Shown piece after piece: positions 16,268-63,498 of a stretch of DNA of 64,000 nt. This stretch comes from an uncultured Methanomassiliicoccales archaeon (GTDB taxonomy: Archaea; Thermoplasmatota; Thermoplasmata; RBG-16-68-12; JAJISG01): positions 23,719 to 87,718 of the forward strand of contig CAYFYA010000008.1 in the NCBI GenBank assembly GCA_964347325.1, written 5' to 3'. The position numbers and the translations under genes were made by a program. How positions within the stretch are numbered: the stretch's first letter is position 1; every line of letters starts with the position of its first letter. The notes below the pieces were generated by a model. The model was not told the origin of the DNA. It worked only from the letters and a program-made list of their open reading frames with translations, and did not search any database.

Positions 16268-16286
16268 CACCACCACTGTGAAGTGG

Positions 16287-39940: not shown

Positions 39941-42286
39941 CTAGTGGACTTCTCCGTGACCGTACCTGTGGGGGTCTGCGTCGAAGGTCTCCTTGCAGTG
40001 GGCGCTGCAGAAGTAGAAGACCACGCCCGCGTGTTCTGAGCTACCGTAGGCCGTGTCGGGATTGACGTCCATTCCGCAAACTGGGTCCTTCGCCATGGTG
40101 GGCCTCCTTTCCTCCCACTTCGTGATGGTGGGTCGGAATCTCTTCAGCAATAAAGAGTTAGCTACAACCGTTGTAGAGGAGAACCCCATGGCGGCCCCGG
40201 CGAAGATAGGGTCCAGCAGCAGGCCAACGAGGGGGTATAGTATACCGGCCGCCACCGGGATGAGGGCCGTGTTGTAGGCGAAGGCCCAGAACAGGTTCTG
40301 TCGTATCTTGGAGTACGTCCTGCGGCTGAGTTGAATGGAGGCCACCACATCCCGGAGGTCGTCCTTCACCAGGACGATGCCGCCCGCCTCCCTGGCGACG
40401 TCTGTGCCGCTGCCGATGGCGATCCCCACATCCGCTTGAGCGAGGGCTGGGGCGTCGTTGATCCCGTCCCCCACCATGGCGACGGAGTGGCCCTTAGCCT
40501 GGAGCTCCTTGACCTTCTCCGCCTTGTCCCCCGGAAGCACCTCGGCCATGACCTCCTCGATGCCAACCTGAGCGGCGACGGCCATGGCCGTCCTCTCGTT
40601 GTCCCCTGTCAGCATAACGGGCCGGATGTTCATGGCCTTGAGCGCCTCCAACACTTCCTTGGCGTGCTCTTTGGGCGCGTCGGCTACGGCGAAGACGCCC
40701 GCCAGTTCATCGTCGACGGCCAAGAGCATGACGGTCTTGCCCTGCTGCTCGAGACCCTGCATCGTGCTCTCCATCTTGGAGAGTTCGACCCCGCTCTCCT
40801 GCATCAGCTTCCGGTTGCCGAGGAGGACTTTCCTGCTCTTCACCTTGGCCCTGACTCCGTGGCCCGGTACCGCCTTGAACTCCTCAGGGTCCACAGCCGC
40901 GATGCCGACCTCCTCCGCCTTTCGCAGTATCGCCTGGGCTAGGGGATGTTCAGAACCCTTCTCGGCCCCTGCGGCGAATCCGTAGACCTCCTCCACCGGA
41001 AGGCCCACGGGCACGACGTCAATCACCTCCGGCCTTCCCTTAGTGAGGGTTCCGGTCTTGTCGAAAATCACGATGTCTAGCTTGCGGGCCTTCTCCAGGT
41101 GCTCCCCTCCTTTGATGAGCAGGCCATTCTCGGCCCCCATGCCAGTGCCGACCATGATGGCGGCTGGGGTAGCGATTCCCAGGGCACATGGACAGGCGAT
41201 AATCAGGACGGCCACGAAGACCGTCAGACTGAATGTGAAGGAGGAGAGCTCGACAGGGGGAGTCCAGAGCCCGGTTCCTATGAAGTACCAGAACAGGGCG
41301 GCGATGATGGCAACGCTGATGACCGCCGGGACAAAGTAGCCCGCAACGACGTCTGCCAACCTCTGGATGGGGGCCCTGGACTCCTGGGCCTCCTCCACCA
41401 GGTGGATGATCTGGGCCAGCGTGGTGTCCTTCCCCACCTTGGTGGCCCTGAACTTCAGCATCCCGGTCTTGTTGATGGTGGCGCCGATGACCTCGTCCTC
41501 CAGCCCCTTCTCCACCGGAAGGGACTCGCCAGTAATCATAGACTCGTCCAGGGCTGACTGACCCTCCAGGATGACCCCATCCACGGGGACCTTCTCGCCC
41601 GGACGGACTACGACGATCTCACCCACCTCCACCTGCTCTACTGGGACCTCGACCTCCTCCCCATCACGGATGACTTTGGCCATCCTCGGGGCGAGGTCCA
41701 TCAGCCGGCGGATGGCCTCCGAGGCTCTCCCCTTGGCCTTCTCCTCGAAGAAGCGGCCCAGGAGGATGAGGGAAATGATGAAGGCCGCCGTGTCGAAGAA
41801 GACCGCCTCGCTGGCGAAGAAGGTCGGGAGGAATGTGACGACGGTGCTGTACCCGTAGGCGGCGCTGGTCCCCACGGCGATGAGGAGGTCCATGTTGGCG
41901 ACGCGATTCTTGAGGGCGTCCAAGGAACCGCGGTAGTATCGCCATCCTGCGACGAACTGCACGGGGGTGGCGAGGGCGAAGAGGACGAAGTTGCGGATGG
42001 CGGGCTCGAGGATGGGCAGTATGCTAAGGATGAGTATGGGTATCGAGAGGGAGAAGCTCAGGACGAGGAGCCGCTTGAGATGCCCGAGCTCCTTCGCCGG
42101 CTCCTTGAAGGTCAGCAGGCAGGTCTCGCTGCAGAAGAAGTAGTCTTTGCCATCCACAGTGGCCACTAGCTTGACCTTCGTCTCGTCCACGTACATGCCG
42201 CACACTGGGTCCTTCGCCAAGACTACCTCCTTGTGGAGAGAAGACCCGGTCGTACTTAAGCGGTGTCTACACGAGGCCTGGGCCAT
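39941..42286 (-). CDS. copA: Heavy-metal (Cu+) translocating P1B-type ATPase with N- and C-terminal TRASH/YHS metal-binding domains
   Basis: '[11 protein letters not shown]' (CPC), 'DKTGTLT', 'GDGINDAP'. N-terminal '[16 protein letters not shown]' and C-terminal '[16 protein letters not shown]'. Confidence 0.9.
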
Positions 42287-42411: not shown

Positions 42412-42966
42412 ATGGCTAAGAAGGCCGATAGGGCGAAACTCAAGATTTGCCTCGCCGGTGAGGCCGCCGTGGGGAAGACCTCCCTTATCCGTCGATTCGT
42501 CTACGACCAGTTCGACGAGAAGTACACCGTGACCCTGGGGGCCAAGGTGACTAAGAAGACGGTAACCTTCAAGGGCAAGAAGGGCGACCTCGAGGTGGAC
42601 CTAGCCATCTGGGACATCATGGGCGAGAAGTTCCTTCGAGAACTGCTCCGGGAAGCCTATTTCTACGGCGCCCAGGGAATCCTCGCGGTTTGCGACGTCA
42701 CGAGGGCGGAGACCCTTGTCGACTTAGAGGACTGGAAGACAGCGATTGAGAAGGTAGTCGGGAAGGTGCCAGTGATCGTCCTGGCCAACAAGTCCGACTT
42801 GGTGGACGAGACGGTCATCGACGAGAAAGGCCTCAAGCTCTTCTGCGAAGAGTGGCACTGTCCCTATCTCCTCACCAGCGCCAAGGAGGGGGACAACGTG
42901 GAGAAGGCCTTCCAGGATATTGCGGACACGGTGCTGGAAGGCATCACCGCCGAACGCATTGCCTGA
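42412..42966 (+). CDS. Ras-superfamily small GTPase (Rab/Ran-like)
   Basis: G1 'GEAAVGKTS', G2 Thr in 'YTVTLG', G3 'WDIMG', G4 'NKSD', G5 'TSAK'. 184 aa, with no lipidation motif. Confidence 0.8.
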   Translation: MAKKADRAKLKICLAGEAAVGKTSLIRRFVYDQFDEKYTVTLGAKVTKKTVTFKGKKGDLEVDLAIWDIMGEKFLRELLREAYFYGAQGILAVCDVTRAETLVDLEDWKTAIEKVVGKVPVIVLANKSDLVDETVIDEKGLKLFCEEWHCPYLLTSAKEGDNVEKAFQDIADTVLEGITAERIA

Positions 42967-50128: not shown

Positions 50129-52969
50129 ATGCATGACGGTCCAACAAGAGCGGGGGCCCTGGCAACGACCTTAGAAGCTCCAACTGTGAAGGACCGGATT
50201 TTGCTCCACCTCTTTGGCTATAGGCAACACGAGGAGGACTTCGCAGTCCCTCTGGTGATAACACAGGAAGGAATTGCCCGGGCGGTATGGATTGATGTCC
50301 GTCATGTGGTTCAGTACGTCCGTCCCCTCATGGAGGAAGAGTTCGTCCGGGAACGGATGGCACATATAGAGGGTGGGAGGAGAAGGCGCAAGGTCTACTG
50401 TCTCACGGACCGAGGGAAATCAAGAGCGCTGCAGCTCCAGAAGAGCCTAGCCTCCGAAACCGTGCGCGTTCGAGACGCTGAGGGTGTTCGTGAAGAGACG
50501 GTTGCGGAAGTTCTTCAGCGGCCTGGTGTAGAGACCTCGGTTCTGGAAGTCATACGCGAGTTCGTTCACTCAGGGGCAGTCGATGTTACGGCCCTCCAGG
50601 CTCCCTCCCCAGGTAGATACGTAGAGATGCTAGCTGACGCGCCGAAGGTCTCCGAGTTCCTCGGACGTGAGAGGGAACTTGAAACTCTCATGCGGGAAGG
50701 TGACGGGCCACGGATCTTCGTCATAAAGGGTGTGGCTGGGATCGGCAAGTCCACACTGGCAGCCAGGGTATGCGGGCTCCGAAGAAGCCGCCAGAATGTC
50801 TTTTGGCATAGAATCAGGTCGTGGGACACCCCCCACTCGATCCTCGCTGCCCTCGGCACCTTCCTCTCGGCCCTGGGAAGGCCCGGCCTGAAGACTGTCC
50901 TGGCGGAGGGTAGGCCCGAGATGGCTCCCGAGGTACTCAGAGAAGATCTTCCCGGCGTGAAGGCGGTGATAGTGATTGACGATGCCCACGACGCGAGTCG
51001 TGATGTGCTGGAATTCCTCCGCTTCCTGAAGGATGCGATTGCGGAGACCCCGGGGGTAACAGCACTGGTTATCACCCGACGGTCCCTTCCATTCTACGAC
51101 AGACGCGACGTGGTCCTCGACGAGATGGTTCAGGAGGTAGATCTAGAGGGTCTCGAGCCGGAGGTCGTCGAAGCAACAACCTCGGCTGAGGAGAGGGGTA
51201 GTCTGCCGATCGACCTGCTTCGTCACCCCCTCTTCCTGAAGCTAATGCGAGCCTCAACCGGAAGGAGAGCGCGTCGAGAGGCGCTAAGGGACTTCCACCG
51301 CTTCATCCAAGAGGCGATCTACTCGGAGTTGCCGGAGCCTGGGAGGAGGATGATGAAGATTGCCTCTCTATACCGAGTCCCAATCCCCCCAGAGGCCCTC
51401 CTCTTCGAGGCCACCTTGTCCCGCGACGTCATGCACGATCTGATGGAAAGAGCCCTTCTCACCGTAGTTGGCGAGGAGGACGTGGAAGTTCACGACACCA
51501 TTCGGGACTTCTTCGAGGCATTGCTCACGGAGGTCGAGAAGACGGAGTTCAGGGCCTTCGTAGTCCCACAGCTACGCGAACTAGCTTCCAAGGCTTGGGA
51601 CCAGGGAGATCTCTCCTACTGTATCAGCTGTCTCTCAAACGCCCTACACCTCTCCCCATCGGGATCGGAAGGATTAGCCGTCTATGAGGCCCTCGGCGAC
51701 GTCAAGGAGCGCATCGGTGACGTCGAAGGAGGCCTTGAGTCCTACAGGATGGCTATGGTTGCCGCCGGAGACCCTGAGTACTCGGCACGGCTCTACAGGA
51801 AGATAGGCACGGCTCTGGTCATTCGAGGAGAGATCCCTCCAGCCGCTAAGGCCGTGGAGGATGGATTCCAGGCCCTTGGACAAAGGGTCTGCGCAGAGCT
51901 CGGTTGGCTCAACCTGACCAGGTGTCGGGTCCTTGAGTGGCTTGAGCGCTGGGAGGAAGCCAAGGAGCACGGCATTGTCGCCTTGGAGACCTTCGAGGCC
52001 TTCGGAGAGCTCAGTGGCCAGGCCCAGGCCTATCTCCTGCTCGGACACATCGAAACGGGGATGCCTGGTGGGAGGCCCTCTCTGGCCCAAAGATACTTCA
52101 AGAGGGCGTTGGACCTGGCAGAAGCCCTTGGCGATGCTGCCGCCGTAGCGACGGTCCATCTGTTCCTCAGCAGTCTCTACGCCTTCCCCCTGGGAAATGT
52201 GGAGAAGGCAGAGGATCATCTGACGGCCGTCAGCCCCCTAGTCGACGACCTGGGAGACACCTTCAAGCGAATCAATTTCCTCTCGATGAAAGGGGCGTTC
52301 GACCTTCACATCAGGGCCGATTTCGAAGGGGCGGAGGCTCTCTTCGAGGAGGCAGCGTCGTTGGGCCGAAAACTCCGCAGCCCGGGTAGGGCAGCCTTCG
52401 CGGAATACCTACTCGGCTGGAGTAACTACTACCAGGGGAGGTTCGGCAAGGCGATGGATATGTTCAGGGAGTTCGCTGACGACATGCGAGAACGCGGTAT
52501 TCAACCGTCAGCAGTGGAGGCTCTGTGTATGGCCGCTGAGTGTGCTTTGCTTGAAGGTAACGTTGACGAGTTCCGTCGAATTCTGGTGGCCCTGAGGGAC
52601 CAGAGTCTCTCCCAAGGCGCTGAGGCTAGGCCGATGATGATGAAGGTGGTTGGTGCCATTGACCTGTTCCTCCGCGGCGACCTCGAAGCGTCCCGCACGT
52701 CCCTGGAGGAGGCAGTTGTGGCCGATGAGGGCGGGCTCGCATTTGACCCCGCTCTTCCCCACGTTGTGCACGCAGCCCTTTCACGGGCACTGGGGCGGGA
52801 GGAGGAGGCGACGGAGCACCTGAAAGCGGCGGCAAGCGCCTTCGAGGCCCTCTCCCGCACGGCCCATCTTAATCTCCTCGAAACCAGAGAGCAGTGTCTG
52901 GCTGAGACGCTCCACTCAACCGCAACTGGGTCCTCCGATCCGCCTACCCCAGCCGGTCGCGGCTCGTAG
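50129..52969 (+). CDS. STAND-class P-loop NTPase with an N-terminal PadR-like winged HTH and C-terminal TPR-like helical repeats
   Basis: wHTH 'RRKVYCLTDRGK'. Walker A 'IKGVAGIGKSTLAARV' and Walker B 'VIVIDDAHD'. Long alpha-helical repeat C-terminus. Confidence 0.75.
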   Translation: MHDGPTRAGALATTLEAPTVKDRILLHLFGYRQHEEDFAVPLVITQEGIARAVWIDVRHVVQYVRPLMEEEFVRERMAHIEGGRRRRKVYCLTDRGKSRALQLQKSLASETVRVRDAEGVREETVAEVLQRPGVETSVLEVIREFVHSGAVDVTALQAPSPGRYVEMLADAPKVSEFLGRERELETLMREGDGPRIFVIKGVAGIGKSTLAARVCGLRRSRQNVFWHRIRSWDTPHSILAALGTFLSALGRPGLKTVLAEGRPEMAPEVLREDLPGVKAVIVIDDAHDASRDVLEFLRFLKDAIAETPGVTALVITRRSLPFYDRRDVVLDEMVQEVDLEGLEPEVVEATTSAEERGSLPIDLLRHPLFLKLMRASTGRRARREALRDFHRFIQEAIYSELPEPGRRMMKIASLYRVPIPPEALLFEATLSRDVMHDLMERALLTVVGEEDVEVHDTIRDFFEALLTEVEKTEFRAFVVPQLRELASKAWDQGDLSYCISCLSNALHLSPSGSEGLAVYEALGDVKERIGDVEGGLESYRMAMVAAGDPEYSARLYRKIGTALVIRGEIPPAAKAVEDGFQALGQRVCAELGWLNLTRCRVLEWLERWEEAKEHGIVALETFEAFGELSGQAQAYLLLGHIETGMPGGRPSLAQRYFKRALDLAEALGDAAAVATVHLFLSSLYAFPLGNVEKAEDHLTAVSPLVDDLGDTFKRINFLSMKGAFDLHIRADFEGAEALFEEAASLGRKLRSPGRAAFAEYLLGWSNYYQGRFGKAMDMFREFADDMRERGIQPSAVEALCMAAECALLEGNVDEFRRILVALRDQSLSQGAEARPMMMKVVGAIDLFLRGDLEASRTSLEEAVVADEGGLAFDPALPHVVHAALSRALGREEEATEHLKAAASAFEALSRTAHLNLLETREQCLAETLHSTATGSSDPPTPAGRGS

Positions 52970-52988: not shown

Positions 52989-53303
52989 CTACTTCTTTTG
53001 CAGGACCTCCTCGACCCAGATGAGGCTCCTCATCATGGTGGGGAAGCCCAAGGTTGTCACTGCCAACAGCGCCGCGTGTCTCAGCTCTTCGGGGGTAACT
53101 CCCGCTTCTAGCGCCCGTCGGACGTGGGAGTGGGCAGCTCCCTCCATGGCCGCGCCGAAGGAGATCCCCAGCCTCACCAGCTCCCTGGTCTTCGCGTCCA
53201 GGGGGCCCGCCTCGAGGGCCTCTATGCCAAGCTTCTCATACGCCTCGTAGAGCCTCGGGTAGTCGGCCTTGAAGTCTTCAAAGGGTTTGGGTAATTCCGG
53301 CAT
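52989..53303 (-). CDS. Carboxymuconolactone decarboxylase (CMD/AhpD-like) family protein
   Basis: 104-aa all-helical CMD-domain pattern 'ELVRLGISFGAAMEGAAHSHVRRALEAGVTPEELRHAALLAV'. Confidence 0.65.
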   Translation of the reverse strand: MPELPKPFEDFKADYPRLYEAYEKLGIEALEAGPLDAKTRELVRLGISFGAAMEGAAHSHVRRALEAGVTPEELRHAALLAVTTLGFPTMMRSLIWVEEVLQKK

Positions 53304-53381: not shown

Positions 53382-54656
53382 CTAGAGGAGGATTCTCCGC
53401 CGGCGGAGGAGGTGGTAAGCCACGGTCCCTCCCACCATCCCAATGACGTACCCGTACGGCAGCCCGATGATGATGGCACCCACGAGGAGGGCGATGGTTA
53501 GGTCCAGCTTGCTGTCCTTCACCTTAGCCACCAGCTTCACCAGGGCGAAGCCCTCAAAGACCAGAAGCACCCCGAGGATCGGGAAGGGGAAGACCTTCAC
53601 CACCTCGAAAATCACCCCACTGAAGAAGAGGCCGAGGACGAGGAAGATCGCACCGTAGATTACCACCGAACCGCCGGTCCGGGCGCCGAAGCGGTAGTGT
53701 CCGGCCATGCCGCCAGAGCCATGGCAGACGGGGACACCGCTGGCGAAGGGCGCTGCCAGGTTCATCAAGGAGTAGGTGAGTCCGATTCTGCGTGGCGTTA
53801 CGTCCACTCTCTGCGGGAAGTAGTCGCGGACGAGGTAGGCCGTGGCCACAATGGAGTTCGCTATGGAGAGCGGGATCTGGGGAAGGGCCAGCTGGATCCC
53901 ACCTTGGACGATGTCATTGATGGAAGGGACGTTGAACTTGGGCAGGGCGAATCCCACCCCGCCCAGGACGGCGCCGGAGTCGAATCCCTGGAACAAGGCG
54001 AGGCCGACTCCGGCGGCAATGAGTATGAGGGCAGGGGGGAATCTGCTCCCCCGTCCCAGGAAGAGCACCACGAGGATCCCGGCGAAGGCGACGACGTAGC
54101 CAATGATCGCCTCCCCCAGGGGAGCCCCGGGCTGCAGTATGAACCCGAAGGCGATGAGCATGAGCGTCAGGCCCAGGCCCAACTGGATGCCTCGGACGAC
54201 GCCTGGCGGGATGACCCTGTGAATCCAGTCGATGGAACGTGTCAGCACCAGGGCTAGCATCACCGCCCCGACCACGAGGCCGCCTCCGTAGAGCCAACTC
54301 GCCGAGGCGCCGGGGCCCAGTGCTATCATTATGGCGGCCATCGCCTTCAGGGGCTGCACGGGCATAGGGAGGCCATATCGGAGGGCCGTGAGGATCTGGA
54401 AGACACCGAACATCACAAAGGTGCTCGCCGCGTCCAAGCCGTTGATCGCCACCATCGCCAGGATGAGGGGCAGGTCCGTGCCGATATCGCCGAAGGCGCC
54501 GGCGATCTCTCCCCGGTTGAACAGGACCCGAGGTGCCTGGGGAGCCGCGGTCACGGGAGTCCACGATGGATTCCTCTCTAATAATATCGAGGTCCTCCTT
54601 GGGTCACGACTCGAGGACGGCCTTCCCACCAGTCTCCTTATGGGGAGCTTCCCCAC
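53382..54656 (-). CDS. MOT1-family (MFS-like) molybdate transporter with two internal repeats
   Basis: 'AGAFGDIGTDLPLILAM..GLPMPVQPLKAMAAI' closely matches the conserved MOT1 'GDLGTYIPI...PMPVQPMK' motifs. The start is uncertain. Confidence 0.6.
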   Translation of the reverse strand: MGKLPIRRLVGRPSSSRDPRRTSILLERNPSWTPVTAAPQAPRVLFNRGEIAGAFGDIGTDLPLILAMVAINGLDAASTFVMFGVFQILTALRYGLPMPVQPLKAMAAIMIALGPGASASWLYGGGLVVGAVMLALVLTRSIDWIHRVIPPGVVRGIQLGLGLTLMLIAFGFILQPGAPLGEAIIGYVVAFAGILVVLFLGRGSRFPPALILIAAGVGLALFQGFDSGAVLGGVGFALPKFNVPSINDIVQGGIQLALPQIPLSIANSIVATAYLVRDYFPQRVDVTPRRIGLTYSLMNLAAPFASGVPVCHGSGGMAGHYRFGARTGGSVVIYGAIFLVLGLFFSGVIFEVVKVFPFPILGVLLVFEGFALVKLVAKVKDSKLDLTIALLVGAIIIGLPYGYVIGMVGGTVAYHLLRRRRILL

Positions 54657-54976: not shown

Positions 54977-56392
54977 CTACTGAGTTGGTGTCAAAACACG
55001 GCAGTCGGAGCAATAGCGGTTGAGCACTGGAATCAGCGAGGTATACTCCTCTCCTAGAAGCTCGCCGACCCTCTCCAGCATTGCCTGGGGTGCTATCGGA
55101 GCCCCACATCTCTCACACGTGGGCGTGGCATCGCGATGGAGGGCGATTCTGCCTTGGTTCAATCGGCCGAGGTCCACAGTCTTGACGAGTCGAATCGCGC
55201 CGCGATGTCTCTCCGGGCACGGTGGGATACAGATACCGCAGGCCACGCACTTCATGGCATCGAACGTCAGGAAGACTCCTTCCACCTCGCTCCCATAGAC
55301 CAGGGCGTCTGTGGGACAGGCTTCTGCGCACATGCCACAAGTTGTGCAAGCCTCCCCGATTTCCACCACTCCCAGGGGCGATCGCTCGTGGGCGACGGTG
55401 ACTTCCTCCCCGCCGAACAGGTGCGCCAAAACCCTCAGGATTTCCGGAATCGCTTCATGACCAAAGGGCCGATCCAAAGATACCGGGGTCACGCCACGCG
55501 GCGGGTCCTGACTCAGGTCTGGGCCCAACAATACGAGATCCTCCGGGGCCCCGAGACTGGCGAGGAAATCCCGACAGAAGGCCACAGTCTCGGCGATCTT
55601 GTCCGCCTGACCTGCGGGGCACTCGATGGGACATCCCTGAATACCGACCGTACCCGCCCCCATCAGGAGAGGAGCGAGCATCCAACCCGGCGTCGCCATG
55701 CCCGCGCAAGGGAGTCTGAGCGGCATCCATCCCTCTGCGCCCTGCGGTGCGGGAGAGTGTGCACAATGGTACACGATGCCACGAGGCCCGTTCTCTCCAG
55801 AGATGAGGGCACCTACCTGTGCCTCCAACTGTGCGGGCGTGGTCGTGGGGTCGTGAACGGCTCCACACGGACAAGCAGTAACGCAGATACCGCAGGGTTC
55901 ACAGGTCGACTTGTCGAATCGAATCCGCCCCTCGGACCACTTGAGGGCACCCTGGGGACACACCTGGGTGCATACATTGCATCCGCCGCCGGCCGCACAA
56001 GCGGTACGGTCTACGGACGGGACTGCCCGATATTCGGTCCACCTGAGTCCGAACAAGGACCTCCTGCCGATCCTGGAGGATCTGTAAATCTTGGAGTGTT
56101 CAGGGCGGCTGCCGGCGAAGGCCCTCGCCCTCGCCACGGCGGCTGCCAAGAGGACCTTGCCCCTTTCCGGGGTGGCCTCCCCCAGGTGAACGATCTCTAC
56201 CCCCAGGGGATCGAGACCCGCCTTTCTGACCTCCGGCTGCAGTTCCGCCAGTGAGTAGTTCTTCGAGCAGAGGCCAAGGACCAGACGATCGACTTCCTTG
56301 CCGGCAAGGAGCTCGCTGGCTGTCCCCAAACGTTCGCATAGGTTCGGCACAACCTGGACTTCTGTGTGGCTCTCGCCTCCCCACTCAAGCAC
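54977..56392 (-). CDS. Iron-sulfur protein with multiple 4Fe-4S ferredoxin motifs and MvhD-like domain(s)
   Basis: Ferredoxin motifs 'CTTCGMCAEACP', 'CVACGICIPPCP', 'CEPCGICVTACP' and 'CNVCTQVCP'. MvhD-like 'VYHCAHSP...RLPCAGMATPGWMLAPLLMGAGTVGIQGCPIECPAG'. Confidence 0.65.
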   Translation of the reverse strand: MLEWGGESHTEVQVVPNLCERLGTASELLAGKEVDRLVLGLCSKNYSLAELQPEVRKAGLDPLGVEIVHLGEATPERGKVLLAAAVARARAFAGSRPEHSKIYRSSRIGRRSLFGLRWTEYRAVPSVDRTACAAGGGCNVCTQVCPQGALKWSEGRIRFDKSTCEPCGICVTACPCGAVHDPTTTPAQLEAQVGALISGENGPRGIVYHCAHSPAPQGAEGWMPLRLPCAGMATPGWMLAPLLMGAGTVGIQGCPIECPAGQADKIAETVAFCRDFLASLGAPEDLVLLGPDLSQDPPRGVTPVSLDRPFGHEAIPEILRVLAHLFGGEEVTVAHERSPLGVVEIGEACTTCGMCAEACPTDALVYGSEVEGVFLTFDAMKCVACGICIPPCPERHRGAIRLVKTVDLGRLNQGRIALHRDATPTCERCGAPIAPQAMLERVGELLGEEYTSLIPVLNRYCSDCRVLTPTQ

Positions 56393-56414
56393 ACGAGAGC
56401 TGCTCTCGCTCTCC

Positions 56415-57128
56415 TCACAGAGAAGTACGGTCGTCTCGATGTTCGTAGTCAGCCTCCTTGATTAGGAAGCTCAAGTAGTCCTGGTCGTGCCCTATGAAGG
56501 CGTCGGCGGTCTTGACGATTGCCCTGTAGAACGGTTCCTTCGTGGCATTCACGACGATCTCCGCGAACCTGGAGAACCAGGTGCCAAGGTGTTGCTCCAA
56601 GAAAACGAGCTCCTCTTTCACAGTCTCCTGGGCCTTTCCGAGGCCGCCATCCTTCCAGGCTTCCGCCTCCCTCTCGCAGAGGAAGGCCATCGCATCCATT
56701 TCGATGGACACGTGATCGGGCAGACCCTTGTAATCGGTGGGCAGGTCGAGACCCATCCTGGCATACTCTCCATCCAGCTGGGTGATTATAGCTGTTCGTA
56801 GGCCGGGCGGGGCACGGTAATATGACTCGTGGGGATGACAGATAGGACCCCGCGGACCCACGGAGAAGAGCCTCACATGCTCTTGCTGGATTTTCTTGGC
56901 GCTGTTCAGGCCCTGAAACGCTTCTCTTAGCGCTGCCCAGCTCGGATAGAATGCGAAGTCAGCCAAGTGGCGATCATCGAGGCGTTGCAGGGCGTCCTCA
57001 AGCAAAGCTACACGCTTCCCCTCAGGGTAGAGGAGGCTAGTCGCGAGGAAACGGTAGAGTCCGTGGCGGAGCTGCGCTAGCGCTCCCCCATCCAGCTCAT
57101 TCTCCAGAACTTTCCGGTAGGATTTCAT
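56415..57128 (-). CDS. TorD/DmsD/NarJ-family molybdoenzyme maturation chaperone
   Basis: All-helical 237-aa protein with a TorD-like N-terminus 'LAQLRHGLYRFLATSLLYP'. Located inside the molybdoenzyme operon. Confidence 0.6.
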   Translation of the reverse strand: MKSYRKVLENELDGGALAQLRHGLYRFLATSLLYPEGKRVALLEDALQRLDDRHLADFAFYPSWAALREAFQGLNSAKKIQQEHVRLFSVGPRGPICHPHESYYRAPPGLRTAIITQLDGEYARMGLDLPTDYKGLPDHVSIEMDAMAFLCEREAEAWKDGGLGKAQETVKEELVFLEQHLGTWFSRFAEIVVNATKEPFYRAIVKTADAFIGHDQDYLSFLIKEADYEHRDDRTSL

Positions 57129-57315
57129 AGACCACCGCTGACAGGAACATGACTAGGAAGCCGAGGATGAAAATACCTGGAGCGAACGGAACGATTGGGT
57201 TGCTATGATCGACGTTGCTTGGGGGGAAGCCCCAAGGGGCTGCGAAGTAGAAATAGCTCACGATCATGAGCGCTGCACCGACAACGATGAGGAGAGCAGT
57301 GAGGAGTCTACGCAT
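57097..57315 (-). CDS. Small 2-TM membrane protein with a conserved 'PWGFPPS' motif (72 aa from 'MRRLL', preceded by a GGTGA RBS)
   Basis: Overlaps both the NrfD gene and the TorD gene. A paralog lies at 62697-62912. Confidence 0.5.
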   Translation of the reverse strand: MRRLLTALLIVVGAALMIVSYFYFAAPWGFPPSNVDHSNPIVPFAPGIFILGFLVMFLSAVVYEILPESSGE

Positions 57316-58627
57316 CTGTACTATCACCTCCATCTGACATGGTTGTTCTTTCTTCTGGCAAGGGCATAATCGGGAAGAGCTTCATGAAGAGGCCGATGAG
57401 GAGGGCTCCGAAGGCGAAGAGACCGACAATGATCCCGTATTCCACCCAGGTGGGCGTGTATACGCCTATCTGGTACGGGAGAAGGCTCCCGTGAGTGAGC
57501 GAGGGTACGACAACGATGTACCGTTTGGCGATGGCGGCGACGTTGACCATCAGTCCGATCGCCACGAGCACGGGGATGCTCCATCGGCCAGTCAGGGCAA
57601 GAGTGACGATTAGGAAGAGCGGAATGACCAAGAATGCGACGGAGAGCCAGTAGACCCCCGCATACTCGCCGAAGAGGAGAGCGTTCACCAGAAGTGTTTC
57701 TTGAGCGTGCCCTTGGTAGGTCGCCGTAAGGAGCTCGACGAGCATGAAGTACAGATAGACCGCGATGAGGACCATCAGGTACTTTCCGAGGGATTTGAAT
57801 ACGTCGCCATTGATGTTTCTCTTCTCGCCCATGGACCAGCGCGCGATGGCAATAAGAACGATGAGTGCCCCGAGCCCGGAGATTCCCGCCAACACCACGA
57901 ACGCAGGAGCCTGCAGGGCGCTGTACCAACCTGGTCGTCCCGCCTGAAGCCCGAAGACGAGGCCCAGCGTAGAGTGGGCGGCCACCAGAATGGGGATGAT
58001 GGCCACGGCGAGCCAGAAGCTGACCCGACGATGTCGCTTCTGCTCTTCGGGAGTATCGCGATATCCAGCCGCCAAGAAGCGATGGAGTCTTTGCAGACGA
58101 CCTGGTGTCTTCGCGAGAACGGCGGCATCCTTCCTGCTGTCAAGGTAGAGGTAAGTCAGGCTTGCCAGAAGGTAGCCGGCGATGACTAGAACGAAGGTCC
58201 CGAAGAAGGGGGACTGCGGGCGAGCGTATGTGAAGAGGTTGACGATCCCGACGAGAGGGCGACCAAGATCGGGTATCACGGCAAAGGTGGCGAGGATTAG
58301 AGCAACGACAGTCAGCACTTCCGCGATCCGGGCCACTGGGCGAAGATGCTTCAGATCGAGTAGCCTGATCATGGCTGCCATCGTGATGCCCGCGAAGCTG
58401 ATCCCGACGAAGTAGATGTCGAAGGATATGTAGAGGCCCCATGGGGAACCTCCCATCGTTCCTGTGTCCCTCAGACCAGTGACGACTAATCCGAAATTGA
58501 CCTGGACCAACCAGGCAATGAAACCGAACAGGGCAACCGCGGCGGAGACCAACATGAAGATGATCCAACGCCAGGTGAGCCTGCCGACGCCGTACGGCAA
58601 ACGTGCCACAGCAACTTCAGCCGTCAT
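57308..58627 (-). CDS. NrfD/PsrC-family polysulfide-reductase-type membrane anchor subunit
   Basis: Eight to ten TM helices. Its start codon overlaps the stop of the upstream FeS-subunit gene (ATGA at 58624-58627). Confidence 0.8.
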   Translation of the reverse strand: MTAEVAVARLPYGVGRLTWRWIIFMLVSAAVALFGFIAWLVQVNFGLVVTGLRDTGTMGGSPWGLYISFDIYFVGISFAGITMAAMIRLLDLKHLRPVARIAEVLTVVALILATFAVIPDLGRPLVGIVNLFTYARPQSPFFGTFVLVIAGYLLASLTYLYLDSRKDAAVLAKTPGRLQRLHRFLAAGYRDTPEEQKRHRRVSFWLAVAIIPILVAAHSTLGLVFGLQAGRPGWYSALQAPAFVVLAGISGLGALIVLIAIARWSMGEKRNINGDVFKSLGKYLMVLIAVYLYFMLVELLTATYQGHAQETLLVNALLFGEYAGVYWLSVAFLVIPLFLIVTLALTGRWSIPVLVAIGLMVNVAAIAKRYIVVVPSLTHGSLLPYQIGVYTPTWVEYGIIVGLFAFGALLIGLFMKLFPIMPLPEERTTMSDGGDSTDA

Positions 58628-59367
58628 AGTGTGACCTCCTCTTTCACCCTTTCAATCTGTCTCATCTCGATATTAGGCGGAGACCCCGCGAGGTAGAAGA
58701 CGCTGGGATCAGTACCCACCTCCTCCAGCAGCTGGAAGTGCGGCTTCTCCACGAGCAACCTGGACACCTCGCTGTCCGGATCTTCGGCGTCTCCGAAGTG
58801 GAGGACGTGGGTTGGACAGGTCTCCACGCAGGCGGGCAACAGTCCCTTCTCGACCCGTTGCACGCAGAAGGTGCACTTCTCGATGACACCCTTGTAGTGG
58901 CCGCCACCCGCGATGCGCCGCTGCTCCGGGCCGAACGCAGTGTCCAGATCGGGATTCTTGTAAGGGGGGACCGCGCCCTCGCTGACTCCCGCCAGATCGG
59001 GATCGTCCCATGCCAAGTAGTAACTCCTCACAGGCTCCTTCCAGTTGAAGTAGTTCACGCCGTAGGGACAGGCCACCTCACAGTACCGGCAGCCAATGCA
59101 GCGGTCCCAGTCCGTGGCCACGAGCCCGTCGATTCGCTTGTAGCGGGCCCCGACGGGACACACCTTCACACAGGGCGCGTTATCGCAGTGCTGACAAGGC
59201 CTGGGGAAGAACGAGATGCGCGTGTCTGGATAGGTCCCCTCCTCAAGGCGCCACACGTACATCCAGAAGTTCGCCTGGGGGGTGTTGTTCTCCACCTTGC
59301 ACGCTTCCATACAGGCGCGGCAACCGGTACATCGATCGAGGTCGATCGTCATGACGTACTTGGCCAT
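58624..59367 (-). CDS. 4Fe-4S ferredoxin-type electron-transfer subunit (PsrB/DmsB-like)
   Basis: 'CTGCRACMEACK', 'CQHCDNAPCVKVCP', 'CIGCRYCEVACP' and 'CTFCVQRV'. Confidence 0.9.
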   Translation of the reverse strand: MAKYVMTIDLDRCTGCRACMEACKVENNTPQANFWMYVWRLEEGTYPDTRISFFPRPCQHCDNAPCVKVCPVGARYKRIDGLVATDWDRCIGCRYCEVACPYGVNYFNWKEPVRSYYLAWDDPDLAGVSEGAVPPYKNPDLDTAFGPEQRRIAGGGHYKGVIEKCTFCVQRVEKGLLPACVETCPTHVLHFGDAEDPDSEVSRLLVEKPHFQLLEEVGTDPSVFYLAGSPPNIEMRQIERVKEEVTL

Positions 59368-61955
59368 CAGTCCTCACCCCCTGCCTTGGAGACCTGAACC
59401 TTCACGTGATATGACTGATCCGCCGTGTTGGAGACGTAGCCCTCGCCGGTGAAGAAGAGCTCGTTGGGTGAGGGACCCTGCCCGTCGTTCGTGGGGTTCC
59501 TCCACATTCCGAAGTGGTGGGGCATGCCCACAGTGTCCGGTCGAATGCTTTCAACGAGGGTCGCTCGCACCTTCGCCCTCCTCGTTTCCCCCGTCACAGC
59601 GTTCTGGGCTTCGACCCAAACCAGGTCCCCTTCGCGGATGCCCCGCGCCCGGGCGGCCTCCGGATTCATGTCGAGCCGCTGCTCCGGGGTCAGTTCCGCC
59701 AGAAGCGGGATGAAGCTGGTCCGGGACTGCTTGTGCTCGATGAGCTTGTAGCTGATCAGGTAGAGGTCGTAGGCCGACGGGGACCCCTCCATCGTGGGAT
59801 CTCGCCACACGGGGAACGGCGTGTAGTCCTGCCAGTAGATCTGCTCCACGCCCTTCGCCTTCATCTCATTCTGGTACCGCAGCAGGCTCTCCCCGTAGAG
59901 GCGGTGCAGGGCGCCCCCGAAGGGCGGGCCGGCGGCGTAGCCGTATCGCGCCGAGGGGGACAGGGGCCCCTTGATCCACACGCCGTTGTTCTCGAAGAAT
60001 TCGATTCCACCGCTCAAGCCTTCCATCAAGGACCATTGATGGAAGATGTCGCGGACGGAAGGCTTCGTGTCGAGGTCGAGGAGATACGGATCTTCGAGCC
60101 CTACCGCAGCATTGATCCGATCGATGTAGCCTCCGACTCCATAGAGGACACCCATCTTCTCGGCGAGATCCAGATAGATGTCGATCTCCCCCCGCGATTC
60201 GAAGAGGGGATCCATCGGCGGGAGACGAAGCGTCTTGGCGTCGATGTACTGGTCCGATACGGAGCTGACGCCCTCGTACTTCTCGATGGTCGCCGCTGGC
60301 AGCACGACATCGGCGAAGTAGTCTGCGGTCTCTGACAGCCACGGATTGATGTCGACGACGAAGTTGAGCTTCTTGTACGCGTCAATGAAGTCCTTCTGAG
60401 AGAGGAAGGAGGTGAGGGGATTGGCCATGTGCAGAATCATCACTTCCGGCAGGTCGTCTACCCCGTACTTGGCGGGATCGAGCATGACCTTGGCCGCGAC
60501 GCCAGGGAGGGCCGAGTTGATCGGGTAGAACTTGCTATTCTTGAGGTAGAAGTTGTACGGGGGGTCCCCAATCGTAATCTCATCTAGGCCCGCATAATTG
60601 CTGTGAATCTTCCAGGTGAAGTCAATCATGGTGCCCCCTACCGCTCCCATGGCTCCGAGGAGCATTTCGACGAGGATCATGGCCCGAAGCGCCTGGAATC
60701 CGAGCTCTTGCTGCGCCATGTGATAGGCCATGATGGCGACGGGTCGGTAGGGGATGTCCTCCCCCTCCAGGTTAATCGTGCTGCCGATTAGGGCGTTCTC
60801 GCCCATTTCGAGGGCCACTTGTCTGATTTGCGCCGCCGCGACGTCGCAGACTCCCTCCGCCCATTCGGGGGTGTACGAGGCCACGTGCTCTGTGAAGAGC
60901 TGGAAGGCGGGCTTAACAGTCTCGGCGCCGACCGTGTACTCACCCTCTAGGGCGGGCACAGCGGCCGGGTCATCATGGTCCATTGGAGCTGAGGTCACCG
61001 TGTCCCAGACCTGCTCCTTGTCGCCAACCCGATAGAAGGAGCCGTCCTCCCCCACCAGGAAGGGCGCGTTAGTGTAGGTCGAGAGGTAGTCCGTGTCCAC
61101 ATACCCGTTCGCAATCAGCACGTTGCAGAGAGCCAGGGCCAGCGCCATGTCAGTCCCGGGTTTGATGGGAAGCCAGACGTCCGCAAAGTGGCCGGCACTC
61201 CGGAGTCGCGGGTCGATATGAACCACCTTGATGCCCCGCTCCCGGGCCTCCATGAGTTGCTGAGGCCAGGTGATCCAGCAGAACTTGTTTCCGCCCGCAT
61301 TGGTGATGTTCCATCCCCAGGAGAGGAGGTAGCGGGTATACTTGAAATCGGGATGGAGCACCCCATGCGGTCCAATGGTGTACTCCGCCGCTCGATAGCC
61401 GGCGTCGGAACAGTAGCCGCCGTGGCCTAGCTTGCTGGCGCCTATCGCCCCGACAAAGGCCGTATCGTAGAAGGCACCGGCCTTGCTCCTTCCTTTCTGC
61501 CAGAGTACGAGACTCGGGTCGCGATCCCTTACCGTGTTGACTTGCTGCGCCACGAGGTCGAGGGCTTCGTCCCAGGAGGCTTCCCGCCATTGGCCGGTGA
61601 CGCCTTTCTCGTTCGTCCGGATGAGAGGGGTCTTGACCCGGTTAGGGTCATAGAACGCCATAATCTGTGCCTGGCCCTTGGGACAGAGGGTGCCGAGGTT
61701 CCTCGGATGGTCTGGGTGACCCGCAAGGGACACCACCCTGCCGTTGAGTCTCCGGGCGATCATGCCGCATTCCTGCTTCCCTATCCAGCAAGTTGTGGGG
61801 ACGAAATCCTCGGTCGCAGGGGCGGCATCCTTGGGGGTGGTGGGTCTCAGAATCGAGGGAATGCCCAGGTTCCAAGGCGAGACTTGGGTTGCGATCGCGG
61901 CGCCCGCGGCGGTGGCTCCACTCAGCTTCAGGAACGTTCTTCTCGAATGTTTCAC
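59367..61955 (-). CDS. Molybdopterin (bis-MGD) oxidoreductase catalytic subunit with a Tat signal; Psr/Phs/Ttr/Arr clade
   Basis: Tat motif 'SRRTFLKLSGATAAGAAIA'. FS0 region 'CWIGKQECGM...GRVVSLAGHPDHPRNLGTLCPKG'. 862 aa. Confidence 0.9.
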   Translation of the reverse strand: MKHSRRTFLKLSGATAAGAAIATQVSPWNLGIPSILRPTTPKDAAPATEDFVPTTCWIGKQECGMIARRLNGRVVSLAGHPDHPRNLGTLCPKGQAQIMAFYDPNRVKTPLIRTNEKGVTGQWREASWDEALDLVAQQVNTVRDRDPSLVLWQKGRSKAGAFYDTAFVGAIGASKLGHGGYCSDAGYRAAEYTIGPHGVLHPDFKYTRYLLSWGWNITNAGGNKFCWITWPQQLMEARERGIKVVHIDPRLRSAGHFADVWLPIKPGTDMALALALCNVLIANGYVDTDYLSTYTNAPFLVGEDGSFYRVGDKEQVWDTVTSAPMDHDDPAAVPALEGEYTVGAETVKPAFQLFTEHVASYTPEWAEGVCDVAAAQIRQVALEMGENALIGSTINLEGEDIPYRPVAIMAYHMAQQELGFQALRAMILVEMLLGAMGAVGGTMIDFTWKIHSNYAGLDEITIGDPPYNFYLKNSKFYPINSALPGVAAKVMLDPAKYGVDDLPEVMILHMANPLTSFLSQKDFIDAYKKLNFVVDINPWLSETADYFADVVLPAATIEKYEGVSSVSDQYIDAKTLRLPPMDPLFESRGEIDIYLDLAEKMGVLYGVGGYIDRINAAVGLEDPYLLDLDTKPSVRDIFHQWSLMEGLSGGIEFFENNGVWIKGPLSPSARYGYAAGPPFGGALHRLYGESLLRYQNEMKAKGVEQIYWQDYTPFPVWRDPTMEGSPSAYDLYLISYKLIEHKQSRTSFIPLLAELTPEQRLDMNPEAARARGIREGDLVWVEAQNAVTGETRRAKVRATLVESIRPDTVGMPHHFGMWRNPTNDGQGPSPNELFFTGEGYVSNTADQSYHVKVQVSKAGGED

Positions 61956-62073: not shown

Positions 62074-62277
62074 TCAGAGATCCTCCATGACCGCCTCAAT
62101 GGTCTTCTGCAACTGGGAAATCAGTTCCGCCTCGGAATCCCTCAAGGATTCAATCAGCCCTCCCATGCCTTTCGGGACGTCCCGTTCCAGGGCCTGGTTG
62201 CACACACTTAGCCCCCTCATCCTTGAGTCGAGGAGTTGTCTCAGCAGCTGGAGTTCAACTTCCTTGCTCATGGGCAA
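62074..62277 (-). CDS. Small helical protein B1 (67 aa), paralog of 63069-63287
   Basis: About 45% identity to B2, sharing 'SRM.GL..CN..LE....K.....LIE.LRD.EAELIS.LQ.TI..VME'. Confidence 0.5.
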   Translation of the reverse strand: MPMSKEVELQLLRQLLDSRMRGLSVCNQALERDVPKGMGGLIESLRDSEAELISQLQKTIEAVMEDL

Positions 62278-62503
62278 TTTCCTCCAGGATTTGCTCCAAC
62301 GCTTGGAGAATCTGGGTCGTCTGCCAAAGGGTGGTTCGAACGATCTCCGCTGTCATCTCTCTTATCTCTGGGTTCTCGATGCTGTCTCCTAGGTATGCAC
62401 AGATGATGGAGAGGGACTGAACCTCACACTCCTCGAGAAATCGCGATAAGGCCGCCGTCGAATCCAGCACCTTGTGGGTAGCTGGAACTGTATCCCCGTT
62501 CAA
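62255..62503 (-). CDS. Small helical protein A1 (82 aa), paralog of 63259-63498; overlaps B1 by 23 nt
   Basis: About 35% identity to A2, sharing 'H.V....AL.....E.C..QSL..IC.YL.D....P.IR.M'. Confidence 0.5.
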   Translation of the reverse strand: MNGDTVPATHKVLDSTAALSRFLEECEVQSLSIICAYLGDSIENPEIREMTAEIVRTTLWQTTQILQALEQILEEIAHEQGS

Positions 62504-62696: not shown

Positions 62697-62912
62697 TTAT
62701 GCTGGCCTCTTTCCCGGCAAGACCTCAAAGGCCACAGCCGCTAGCCACATCAGGACTCCCCCGATGATGAACAAGAGGGGGGCGAAGGGGAGCCGTGGAT
62801 CACTGTGCTCAACGCCGCTTGGGGGGAAACCCCACGGTGTTGCGAGGACGAAGAAGCTGACGACGACGAGAACAGCGCCGATGACTAGCATGCATGAGGC
62901 ATACGTTTTGCG
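62697..62912 (-). CDS. Small 2-TM membrane protein with 'PWGFPPS', paralog of 57097-57315 (72 aa from 'MRKTY', GGTGA RBS)
   Basis: Shares 'VGA.LM.VS.F..A.PWGFPPS.V.HS.P..PFAP..FI.G..M...AV..E.LP' with the operon copy. Confidence 0.5.
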   Translation of the reverse strand, partial: RKTYASCMLVIGAVLVVVSFFVLATPWGFPPSGVEHSDPRLPFAPLLFIIGGVLMWLAAVAFEVLPGKRPA

Positions 62913-63068
62913 CATTTCAGTCACCTTCACTCAAACTCTCTTTCAATTGGGAGGAGGGGAAAGAGGTGGCATAGAGGCCCACTTCATAAGAGAGGAGCGT
63001 GCCGAAGATCTGGGATGGGAAGACGATAAGGTCTTGGCGGGGATACGAGAAGGGAACGCCCACGCCGA

Positions 63069-63287
63069 TCAACCCTCCTCCATCACCGTGGCAATCGTCC
63101 TTTGGAGCCGGGAGATGAGTTCGGCCTCTTCGTCCCGGAGTGTCTCAATCAGCTGTCTCAGGGGCTTGTCAACCGCCCCCTCGAGGACATCGTTGCAGAT
63201 TTTGAGTCCAGACATCCTCGATTCCAGTACTGATCTCAACATTGCCAACTCCTCTTGGCTACCTGTCATCCATACCCTCCAGGGCAC
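63069..63287 (-). CDS. Small helical protein B2 (72 aa)
   Basis: Paralog of B1. Confidence 0.5.
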   Translation of the reverse strand: MPWRVWMTGSQEELAMLRSVLESRMSGLKICNDVLEGAVDKPLRQLIETLRDEEAELISRLQRTIATVMEEG

Positions 63288-63498
63288 TCCGGACCTGCTT
63301 GAGAGTGAGACTGGTCTGCCTCACGGAGGCCCTGAGAACATCCTCCAGCATGCCTCTGATCTGCGGATCCTCCACCCTGTCCTTCAGATAGTCACAGATG
63401 GTGGCGAGCGACTGGATTCCGCAGTCTTCGGTGAGCTTGAGTAGTGCTTGATGGGGTGAGGCGACCTCATGATCAGAAGATGCTAGGCTTCCGCACAC
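63259..63498 (-). CDS. Small helical protein A2 (79 aa); overlaps B2 by 29 nt
   Basis: Paralog of A1. Confidence 0.5.
   Translation of the reverse strand: MCGSLASSDHEVASPHQALLKLTEDCGIQSLATICDYLKDRVEDPQIRGMLEDVLRASVRQTSLTLKQVRSALEGMDDR

Follow-up and report, generated by a model that had tools for sequence, protein, structure and literature searches.

A minus-strand operon for a predicted Tat-exported molybdoenzyme

We analyzed a 64,000-nucleotide stretch of contig CAYFYA010000008.1 (positions 23,719 to 87,718, assembly GCA_964347325.1) from an uncultured Methanomassiliicoccales archaeon, hereafter the window, and focused on six genes located on its minus strand between positions 54977 and 61955, which we refer to as A, B, C, S, D and F. 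All six open reading frames (ORFs) appear in the ORF listing of the window at the coordinates and in the order assigned to them by a preliminary description made from the sequence alone. A (59367-61955) codes for an 862-aa catalytic subunit binding a Mo or W bis(pyranopterin guanine dinucleotide) (bis-PGD) cofactor and exported by way of twin-arginine translocation (Tat), as assigned by Pfam. B (58624-59367) codes for a 247-aa electron-transfer subunit with four [4Fe-4S] clusters, recognized by Pfam Fer4_11 and by four groups of four cysteines. C (57308-58627) codes for a 439-aa NrfD-family membrane subunit of the ActC/DsrP/QrcD type with about 10 transmembrane (TM) segments, based on Pfam NrfD and hydropathy, and S (57097-57315) for a 72-aa protein with two TM segments and a PWGFPPS loop, delimited by its ORF, its start-codon context and its TM segments. 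D (56415-57128) codes for a 237-aa redox-enzyme maturation chaperone of the TorD/NarJ family (PF02613, Nitrate_red_del, 78.6 bits). Finally, F (54977-56392) codes for an ArxB2-like polyferredoxin of 471 aa when counted from its first canonical start codon, with a probable N-terminal extension encoded at 56393-56452. The Pfam families bear out the earlier view of the locus as an operon for a Tat-exported, NrfD-anchored complex iron-sulfur molybdoenzyme, and at the sequence level they place it in the complex iron-sulfur molybdoenzyme (DMSO reductase/MopB) superfamily.

The genes overlap or abut as anticipated and form one tightly coupled unit. An ATGA junction had been described at both 58624 and 59367; the B/C junction is indeed ATGA, and the A/B junction proved to be TGATG, a 1-nt overlap. 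C and S overlap as well, as do S and D. The S ORF spans 78 aa from the ATG at 57333 and 72 aa from the ATG at 57315. The latter, preceded by GGAGGTGA 8 nt upstream, is the best start, and it fits the length of 72 aa that had been proposed for a small protein with two TM segments, both of which were recovered.

The six-gene order is conserved in bacteria and archaea

More than 1000 relatives of A were found, the best 120 of which share 62-80% identity with it and span Thermoplasmata, Methylomirabilota, Acidimicrobiia, Chloroflexota, Armatimonadota, Nitrospinota, Tectimicrobiota and Burkholderiales. Furthermore, a one-genome-per-species scan revealed family members in 214 species-level genomes of bacteria and archaea. 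We retained the best 80 loci, each of them from a metagenome-assembled genome (MAG), and scored gene order in tblastn searches that used the six proteins of the window as queries. Loci counted as informative if 5.2 kb or more of downstream DNA was available, which was the case for 51. The neighbourhood searches reported below used 83 fetched loci in all.

The order A-B-C-S-D-F was observed in 38 of the 51 informative loci. Five others carry A-B-D-F without C and S, three carry A-B-c-D-F, where c is a divergent NrfD and S is absent, two carry A-B-C-S-D without F, two carry A-B-c-D, and a single locus carries A-B-C-D-F. D is present in all 51 loci and F in 47, and S accompanies the close NrfD type in 40 of the 41 loci that encode it but was found in none of the loci where NrfD is replaced or divergent. 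Independent gene calls on Armatimonadota and Tectimicrobiota contigs returned the identical six-gene set. The six-gene arrangement is a conserved module, far beyond what chance would produce. The preliminary description had regarded S and F as atypical extra subunits, a view that we abandoned because the order recurs across a large family, of which S and F are a conserved signature, and because published counterparts exist, namely arxB2/arxD in arx clusters and sreD/sreE in sre operons.

The catalytic subunit falls outside the named families

A begins with the twin-arginine motif SRRTFLK and scores above the gathering threshold for PF10518 (TAT_signal), PF04879 (Molybdop_Fe4S4), PF00384 (Molybdopterin) and PF01568 (Molydop_binding). 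Invariant Cys182, in the sequence LGHGGYCSD, is the probable Mo ligand. Residues 152-158 (W-Q-K-G-R-S-K) are invariant in the family alignment, and the segment around the ligand reads ..WQKGRSK....LGHGGYCSDAG across the family. Its counterparts are RGRYSH....SHSSVCAEAH in ArrA, YGRGWG....LGHSSMCSDGS in the ArxA of Sulfuricella and GHGTGD....SVSLCTAPR in PsrA. The xGR motif and the GHxxxC(SD) at the Mo ligand are common to the A family and to Arr/Arx but are not shared by PsrA. A formate dehydrogenase identity was also considered and rejected, as A has no selenocysteine/Cys-His pair at the ligand position and formate dehydrogenase models score below PhsA.

When scanned with NCBIfam, A reached 251 bits against the cut-off of 694 for PhsA (NF012032), its best model, 139 bits against 1600 for ArrA (NF041714), 138 bits against 440 for QrcB and 51 bits against 1750 for TtrA (NF011567). 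A search of 1.84 billion representatives clustered at 50% identity returned a few clusters at 57, 54, 45, 40 and 38% identity, beyond which lies a broad field of relatives at 30-35%. The ten nearest representatives were scanned in the same way; none reached the cut-off of a named family, and PhsA was again the best model for all ten. Identity between A and ArxA ranges from 24 to 30%, an Arx-type representative being 29% identical to A. The closest PDB entry by sequence is PsrA, and the closest fold to the AlphaFold2 (AF2) model of A is ArrA (6cz7_A, Foldseek E 2.4e-43), with PcrA and PsrA close behind. By the tests applied, sequence comparison sets the A clade outside Psr/Phs, Ttr, Arr and Arx. 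The original label of a Psr/Ttr-type operon is therefore too specific, since A meets no Psr, Phs, Ttr or Arr cut-off and the membrane anchor is ActC/DsrP-like with no match to PsrC.

Partner subunits of the complex

B matches Fer4_11 at 85 bits. Among NCBIfam models, ArrB (196 bits) and DsrO (191 bits) rank highest, both below their cut-offs, and QrcC gives 169 bits. B is 42% identical to the ArxB of Sulfuricella. It has no signal peptide of its own and, for this reason, is probably exported together with A.

C matches Pfam NrfD at 99.9 bits and the NCBIfam models DsrP, HybB and QrcD. Its matches in the PDB are solely ActC chains of alternative complex III (ACIII), which align over the full length at E of about 1e-22, and PsrC (2vpw) is absent from the sequence matches at E below 0.01. 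Hydropathy likewise predicts about 10 TM segments in C rather than the eight of a PsrC-type anchor. Identity to ArxC amounts to 26% (E 4e-6). C presumably provides the quinone/quinol site; NrfD-type anchors are described as devoid of redox cofactors (PMC8076601).

No Pfam family matched S. It nevertheless belongs to a real family, whose members are about 70 aa long and share a conserved loop that faces outward (APWGFPPS...SNP in the family consensus), and given its distribution it is presumed to be an extra subunit of the close NrfD type. D, the TorD-family chaperone, gave no BLAST match to ArxD at 1e-3.

F is a polyferredoxin related to ArxB2

The family of F is conserved over its full length, at 37-79% identity. 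The domains of F follow one another in the order HdrA-N-terminal-like domain, two [4Fe-4S] motifs, an MvhD-like four-cysteine domain, two further [4Fe-4S] motifs of the HycF/NuoI-like kind and a C-terminal CxxC...CxxC. Invariant cysteines form the first dicluster (C132/138/141/145 and C164/167/170/174) and the second (C349/352/355/359 and C382/385/388/392), the central domain has conserved C210, C229, C254 and C258, and the C-terminal module has C426/429/461/464. Four ferredoxin motifs are present as had been described, except that one of them is CX5CX2CX3CP instead of CxxCxxCxxxCP.

The AF2 model of F is confident, with a predicted local distance difference test of 91.8 and a predicted template modelling score of 0.90, and Foldseek matches it to HdrA, HycF and MvhD. 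The family profile also matches MvhB, FwdF and the ferredoxin region of HdrA. One or more MvhD-like domains had been proposed. In the window protein, the Pfam FlpD/MvhD family PF02662 stays below threshold (residues 223-285, 19.0 bits against a gathering score of 22.3, E 1.4e-3), so the single-sequence match failed; many homologues of F carry PF02662, and both the family profile (MvhD 9sfi_K, E 5.4e-6) and the AF2 model (MvhD 5odc_D, Foldseek E 2.5e-4, probability 1.0) uphold one MvhD-like domain in the centre. A second copy was not supported. Profile-profile comparison of the N-terminal and central domains gave no significant result (probability 0.1%), and the first 128 residues match instead the N-terminal domain of HdrA (E 2.7e-4).

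Searches with Pfam and NCBIfam found no flavin- or nucleotide-binding domain in F, which also has neither a signal peptide nor a TM segment. The N-terminus of F is thus akin to that of HdrA, its ferredoxins to the C-terminal region of HdrA and its centre to MvhD, but F lacks the thioredoxin-reductase-like FAD domain that is the bifurcating site of HdrA, and no Hdr or Mvh genes lie nearby. In sequence terms, F resembles an HdrA without the bifurcating flavin domain, to which an MvhD-like domain has been fused. Comparison of F with the ArxB2 of Sulfuricella by hhalign gave a probability of 99.2% (E 1.3e-19, 280 columns), the alignment spanning both diclusters, the MvhD-like middle and the C-terminal CxxC. 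This profile alignment identifies F as a homologue of ArxB2 from arsenite-oxidase clusters.

Homologues of F have about 20 more residues at the N-terminus, including a conserved TAVLLCxD strand. The window encodes TTVLLCEE in frame within 56393-56452 (..LTTNIETTVLLCEESESSSRV), overlapping the stop codon of D. This extension contains no ATG, GTG or TTG, and AGGAGG precedes it at 56453-56458; the candidate starts are CTG at 56452, ACG at 56446 and ATC at 56440. The homologue in the relative locus L085 was called at 492 aa and overlaps the TorD gene, while the public gene model of F has 450 aa and starts later than the 471-aa ORF. F probably begins upstream of its first canonical start codon, so that there is either a non-canonical start codon or a truncated public gene model.

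F as a probable maturation partner of the TorD chaperone

We consider it somewhat more likely than not that F is a cytoplasmic, NapF-like maturation partner of TorD and not a respiratory input branch. The F gene directly follows or overlaps the TorD gene in every case. In the five A-B-D-F loci, NrfD and S are replaced by a 131-aa protein with a signal peptide and two CxxCH motifs, that is, a dihaem cytochrome c, and D and F are kept. This replacement gene was found at 13332-13727 in locus L010, at 13329-13724 in L012, and also in L009, L023, L026 and L042, from Methylomirabilota and Burkholderiales; by their predicted products, these loci are a soluble, cytochrome c-coupled version of the enzyme. 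As F is kept where NrfD and S are replaced, it is independent of the membrane anchor. Furthermore, in cultured organisms F-TorD pairs are found beside Tat-exported Mo enzymes that are unrelated and have different anchors. On the megaplasmid of Ralstonia syzygii (L088, 5551-16565), the gene order is Mrp/NBP35 Fe-S carrier, DUF3305, DUF3306, F, TorD, MopB, FeS subunit and cytochrome b. On Sagittula p3 (L087) and many roseobacter plasmids, F-TorD lies beside an FDH3-type cluster with an Mrp/NBP35 gene, and in Haladaptatus salinisoli it is divergent from an FdhA-FeS-cytochrome b cluster. A further such pair occurs in Natronorubrum. In the Ralstonia and Sagittula plasmids, the conserved set from Mrp/NBP35 to TorD lies ahead of an FDH-like Tat Mo enzyme, and its DUF3305 and DUF3306 may also belong to the F-TorD maturation system.

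A precedent is NapF, a cytoplasmic protein with four [4Fe-4S] clusters that binds NapA before export and is needed for Fe-S assembly in Rhodobacter (PMC10609526). Like NapF, F is cytoplasmic, has four [4Fe-4S] motifs and is encoded together with a Tat-exported Mo enzyme and its chaperone. In contrast, NapF is only about 150-165 aa long and lacks the MvhD-like, HdrA-N-like and C-terminal CxxC modules, and F scores 46.7 bits with the NapF model TIGR00402, short of its cut-off of 102.2. The resemblance is best taken as a functional analogy and not as family membership. By this analogy, D and F would act jointly in the cytoplasm on the precursor of A, possibly with B, before Tat export, and would deliver, repair or poise its Fe-S clusters or Mo cofactor, as NapF does for NapA.

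The maturation role is favoured because F pairs with TorD, outlasts the loss of NrfD, joins other Mo enzymes and is associated with a cofactor-less NrfD. Several points weigh on the other side. An MvhD-like domain and at least 16 cluster-ligating cysteines exceed the needs of a simple chaperone, and a redox role of F, for instance in reductive activation, or even true electron transfer is possible. Moreover, arxB2 is a ferredoxin-type gene whose role is described as unclear in the arx literature, and therefore homology to it transfers no function to F. The preliminary description had suggested that such a protein would imply a cytoplasmic branch for electron input or something like bifurcation; on that reading, electrons would move to or from the Mo enzyme complex through the MvhD-like domain of F. 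Electron transfer is what MvhD- and HdrA-type domains do in known systems, the clusters of F would suffice for a long wire, and the gene junctions predict that F is cotranscribed with the structural genes. Nevertheless, we regard such a branch as quite unlikely. F has no flavin or nucleotide domain and therefore no bifurcation site. No transmembrane path is evident either, as S has no obvious haem ligands and redox cofactors are lacking in NrfD according to PMC8076601. In addition, F is kept where a soluble dihaem cytochrome c replaces the membrane anchor as well as beside enzymes with cytochrome b anchors, and ORF clustering of the fetched loci disclosed no conserved cytoplasmic partner such as a hydrogenase, Hdr or a dehydrogenase. 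F could alternatively be exported with A and B by Tat hitch-hiking and serve as an extra periplasmic electron-transfer subunit. Hitch-hiking does occur in this system, as B must travel without a signal peptide of its own, and an additional wire might be of use in the soluble cytochrome c variants, which retain F. However, the structurally characterized relatives of its domains (HdrA, MvhD, MvhB, FwdF and HycF) are all on the cytoplasmic side, F pairs genetically with a cytoplasmic chaperone and not with A and B, and the Ralstonia F sits with a cytoplasmic Mrp/NBP35 Fe-S carrier, making export of F very improbable.

Comparison with characterized systems

Arx is the known system that comes closest in gene content. 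In Sulfuricella denitrificans skB26, plasmid pSCD carries arxXSR divergent from arxB2-arxA-arxB-arxC-arxD, in which arxC codes for an NrfD protein and arxD for a TorD protein. This arxXSR-arxB2ABCD arrangement, also found in Alkalilimnicola ehrlichii, comprises the same Tat-exported Mo subunit, four-cluster FeS subunit, NrfD and TorD proteins and an extra cytoplasmic polyferredoxin. Furthermore, arx clusters share with a number of bacterial members of the window family a separate PhnD-type sensor, a kinase and a regulator, the sensor being 32-38% identical to ArxX with an identical pocket. The two systems differ in that the regulator is NarL-type with a GAF kinase in the window family and sigma-54/HAMP in arx, and in that the window operon has the extra two-TM subunit S and the HdrA-N-like domain on F. 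F comes last, after TorD, whereas arxB2 comes first in arx, and the archaeal window has no XSR module.

Likeness to Arr was observed at several levels: ArrA is the best fold for A, ArrB the best NCBIfam model for B and ArrX the best PDB match of the sensor protein, and the K/R-G-R motif and HxxxC align with A. Conversely, A falls far short of the ArrA cut-off and has a deletion at the Tyr of (R/K)GRY, and ArxB2-like genes have not been described in any arr cluster (PMC6549141). In the sre operons of Acidianus ambivalens and Thermoproteus tenax, SreD, a polyferredoxin of unknown function, is encoded beside the chaperone SreE (PMC3189178, PMC8551704). Compared by gene content alone, SreABCDE differs from the window operon in that D precedes E and no small two-TM gene is reported.

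C and B also link the operon to ACIII, Qrc and DsrMKJOP, as C aligns with ActC over its full length and matches DsrP and QrcD, and B matches DsrO and QrcC. In ACIII and Qrc, the domain corresponding to the Mo subunit is cofactor-less. In contrast, the Mo subunit of the window retains the Mo ligand, the FS0 cluster motif and the Tat signal, for which reason we regard A as a catalytic enzyme. The searchable literature yielded no description of the A clade or of F-like proteins; comparable operons were noticed in a study of Thermoplasmata MAGs, which did not resolve them.

A sensor module and a haloarchaeal relative suggest arsenic as a possible substrate

A three-gene sensor module recurs beside the bacterial operons, mostly directly upstream and on the same strand, as revealed by ORF clustering of the fetched loci. 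It comprises a PhnD-type binding protein that is anchored in the membrane (PF12974, 191 bits), a kinase of the GAF-HisKA_3 type and a NarL-type regulator; the binding protein adjoins the operon in no fewer than 15 bacterial loci, and the regulator does so in 26. In the PDB, the binding protein matches best the ArrX with which Chrysiogenes arsenatis senses arsenate (E 3e-45), followed by AioX (6e-27), PtxB (6e-14) and PhnD (1e-9), and its best plasmid match is ArxX of Sulfuricella denitrificans, located within a canonical arx cluster. The binding proteins are 32-43% identical to ArrX and ArxX, and ArrX, ArxX and AioX are 33-36% identical among themselves. Seven pocket residues of AioX, including the subfamily-specific Cys, are kept in all 14 binding proteins examined. 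AioX-type sensors bind the substrate of their cognate Mo enzyme (Badilla et al.).

The best plasmid relative of A, at 33% identity, belongs to Natronorubrum bangense JCM 10635. Its operon is built like that of the window and codes for MopB, 4Fe-4S and NrfD proteins, a 64-aa two-TM protein, TorD and a 701-aa "hydrogenase iron-sulfur subunit", and lies between genes for ArsR, a low-molecular-weight protein tyrosine phosphatase (PTP) and MobA on one side and arsD-arsA on the other. Intermediate representatives link the Natronorubrum protein to the window family within the same superclade. Because of the AioX/ArxX/ArrX-type sensor module and of the Natronorubrum operon among ars genes, an arsenic oxyanion, with arsenite oxidized or arsenate reduced, is our leading guess and the single most likely substrate, with a chance that we put a little below even; sulfur compounds come second, and a chemically similar oxyanion is possible. 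The preliminary description had listed polysulfide, thiosulfate, tetrathionate and arsenate types and held that the substrate could not be read from sequence. We concur, the arsenate type of that list now being the leading candidate.

The evidence is not all of one piece, and several observations count against an arsenic enzyme of this kind. The signatures of ArrA and ArxA are (R/K)GRY and XGRGWG, respectively (PMC6549141); the aligned segment of A reads K-G-R-(gap)-S-K, with the Tyr deleted throughout the family, and A has QKGRSKA where the ArxA of Sulfuricella has YGRGWGA. A scores higher with PhsA than with ArrA (251 and 139 bits, respectively), and by Foldseek ArrA ranks barely ahead of PsrA. 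The specificity of a sensor is not set by its pocket residues alone (Badilla et al.), and neither the window nor the archaeal loci contain the XSR sensor module. Queries with the Natronorubrum ArsR, PTP, ArsD and ArsA gave three sporadic matches in the 83 loci and none in the window, so ars genes are rare up to 10 kb from the main family and not enriched around it, and this line supports arsenic solely for the haloarchaeal relative. Lastly, the case is built from comparisons of sequence and structure, the 80 retained loci of the close family all coming from MAGs. A rival reading is a polysulfide, sulfur, thiosulfate or tetrathionate reductase akin to Psr, Phs, Ttr or Sre, in which F and D would be the counterparts of SreD and SreE. 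PhsA is the best NCBIfam model for A and for all ten related representatives, PsrA is its best PDB match by sequence and near the top by fold, and the sreABCDE operon holds the same five kinds of genes (PMC3189178, PMC8551704). Moreover, tetrathionate and thiosulfate are likewise sensed by PhnD-like domains, those of TtrS and ThsS, and a rhodanese gene lies near the operon in a Tectimicrobiota locus. Yet A reaches no Phs or Ttr cut-off (251 of 694 bits for PhsA and 51 of 1750 for TtrA), its anchor is ActC-like and not PsrC-like, its family has KGR, as in Arr/Arx, where PsrA has GHG, and the sensor is a separate AioX/ArrX/ArxX-type protein with the subfamily Cys and not a fused TtrS-type domain. 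A sulfur reductase is therefore, in our judgment, an unlikely contender.

Returning to the arsenic interpretation, we give an even chance to the composite picture in which the operon encodes a Mo/W bis-PGD oxidoreductase that is membrane-anchored and faces the periplasm (the pseudo-periplasm in this archaeon), has an Arx-like gene set, is matured by F and D, and has an arsenic oxyanion as its most probable substrate. In such an enzyme, electrons would travel along a chain made up of the substrate, Mo, FS0, B with its four clusters and, close to the outer face, a quinone site in C/S; C may couple electron flow to proton movement. Many hosts of the family are aerobic. Given these hosts and the cytochrome c-coupled variants, the direction leans to oxidation.

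Genes surrounding the operon

A MOT1-type molybdate transporter (53382-54656, minus strand; PF16983, E 1.1e-50) is encoded 320 bp downstream of F. It is likely a functional companion that supplies Mo, possibly from a separate transcript. Next to it lies a gene for a 104-aa CMD/AhpD-like protein (52989-53303, minus strand; PF02627). In NCBIfam, this protein weakly matches (E 2e-5) the AhpD domain that is part of an arsenite methyltransferase fusion. Ten of the 83 fetched loci, from different phyla, encode a CMD homologue no more than a few kb from the operon; in L059, L023 and L042 it immediately follows F. On the plus strand, 50129-52969 codes for a 946-aa protein with a STAND-type NTPase domain (AAA_16/AAA_22/NACHT-like) and TPR repeats according to Pfam; it could be a regulator that takes the place of the XSR module of bacteria.

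About 750 bp upstream of the operon, an ORF at 62697-62930 (minus strand) codes for S2, a 77-aa paralogue of S with the same PWGFPPS loop in its sequence. An S2-like gene is located just upstream of A in a Thermoplasmata locus (L005/L084, 9430-9654). S2 is flanked by two tandem pairs of overlapping small ORFs on the minus strand (62074-62277 and 62255-62503, 63069-63287 and 63259-63498), whose predicted products are helical (82 and 67 aa in one pair, 79 and 72 aa in the other). No Pfam family matched these products, the best score going to DUF2383 (E 0.06). L004 and L059/L085 have a homologous pair immediately upstream of A, making these ORFs conserved companions of the archaeal operons.

In an Anaerolineae locus without F (L029), the gene following TorD (15763-16551) codes for a member of the FmdE family (PF02663, E 1.5e-27) with a zinc ribbon at its C-terminus, which, from its sequence, may be an alternative accessory factor. 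In Armatimonadota locus L001 (17582-22574), genes for an ArsR-family regulator and for another molybdopterin enzyme, of 1166 aa and with its own FeS subunit, come after the operon. Elsewhere in the window, a P-type ATPase with two C-terminal YHS domains (copper-type; 39941-42286, minus strand) lies beside a Ras-family small GTPase (42412-42966, plus strand; PF00071, E 7e-35), which is unusual in a prokaryotic genome.

Significance of the family

The MvhD-like domain in F calls for caution, as such a domain alone is insufficient to infer electron bifurcation. Whatever the substrate, ArxB2 ("role unclear"), SreD ("unknown function") and the genes beside TorD that PGAP names "hydrogenase iron-sulfur subunit" may be one accessory kind. 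If so, its function would be testable in cultured Natronorubrum bangense, Ralstonia, roseobacters and arx bacteria.

More tentatively, the window family and its Natronorubrum-type relatives could form a third respiratory lineage for arsenic or metalloid oxyanions beside Aio and Arr/Arx, spread horizontally through at least 214 species-level genomes and equipped with a fourth sensor branch in bacteria, and ArxB2/F with TorD could be a general system for Fe-S maturation or reductive activation of Tat-exported molybdoenzymes; we regard this broader proposal as possible but doubtful. Members of the family occur in soils, groundwater, hot springs and marine sediments, their hosts being Acidimicrobiia, Chloroflexota, Methylomirabilota, Armatimonadota, Thermoplasmata and others. 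If the arsenic interpretation is true, surveys that count solely aioA, arrA and arxA would miss a widespread enzyme.

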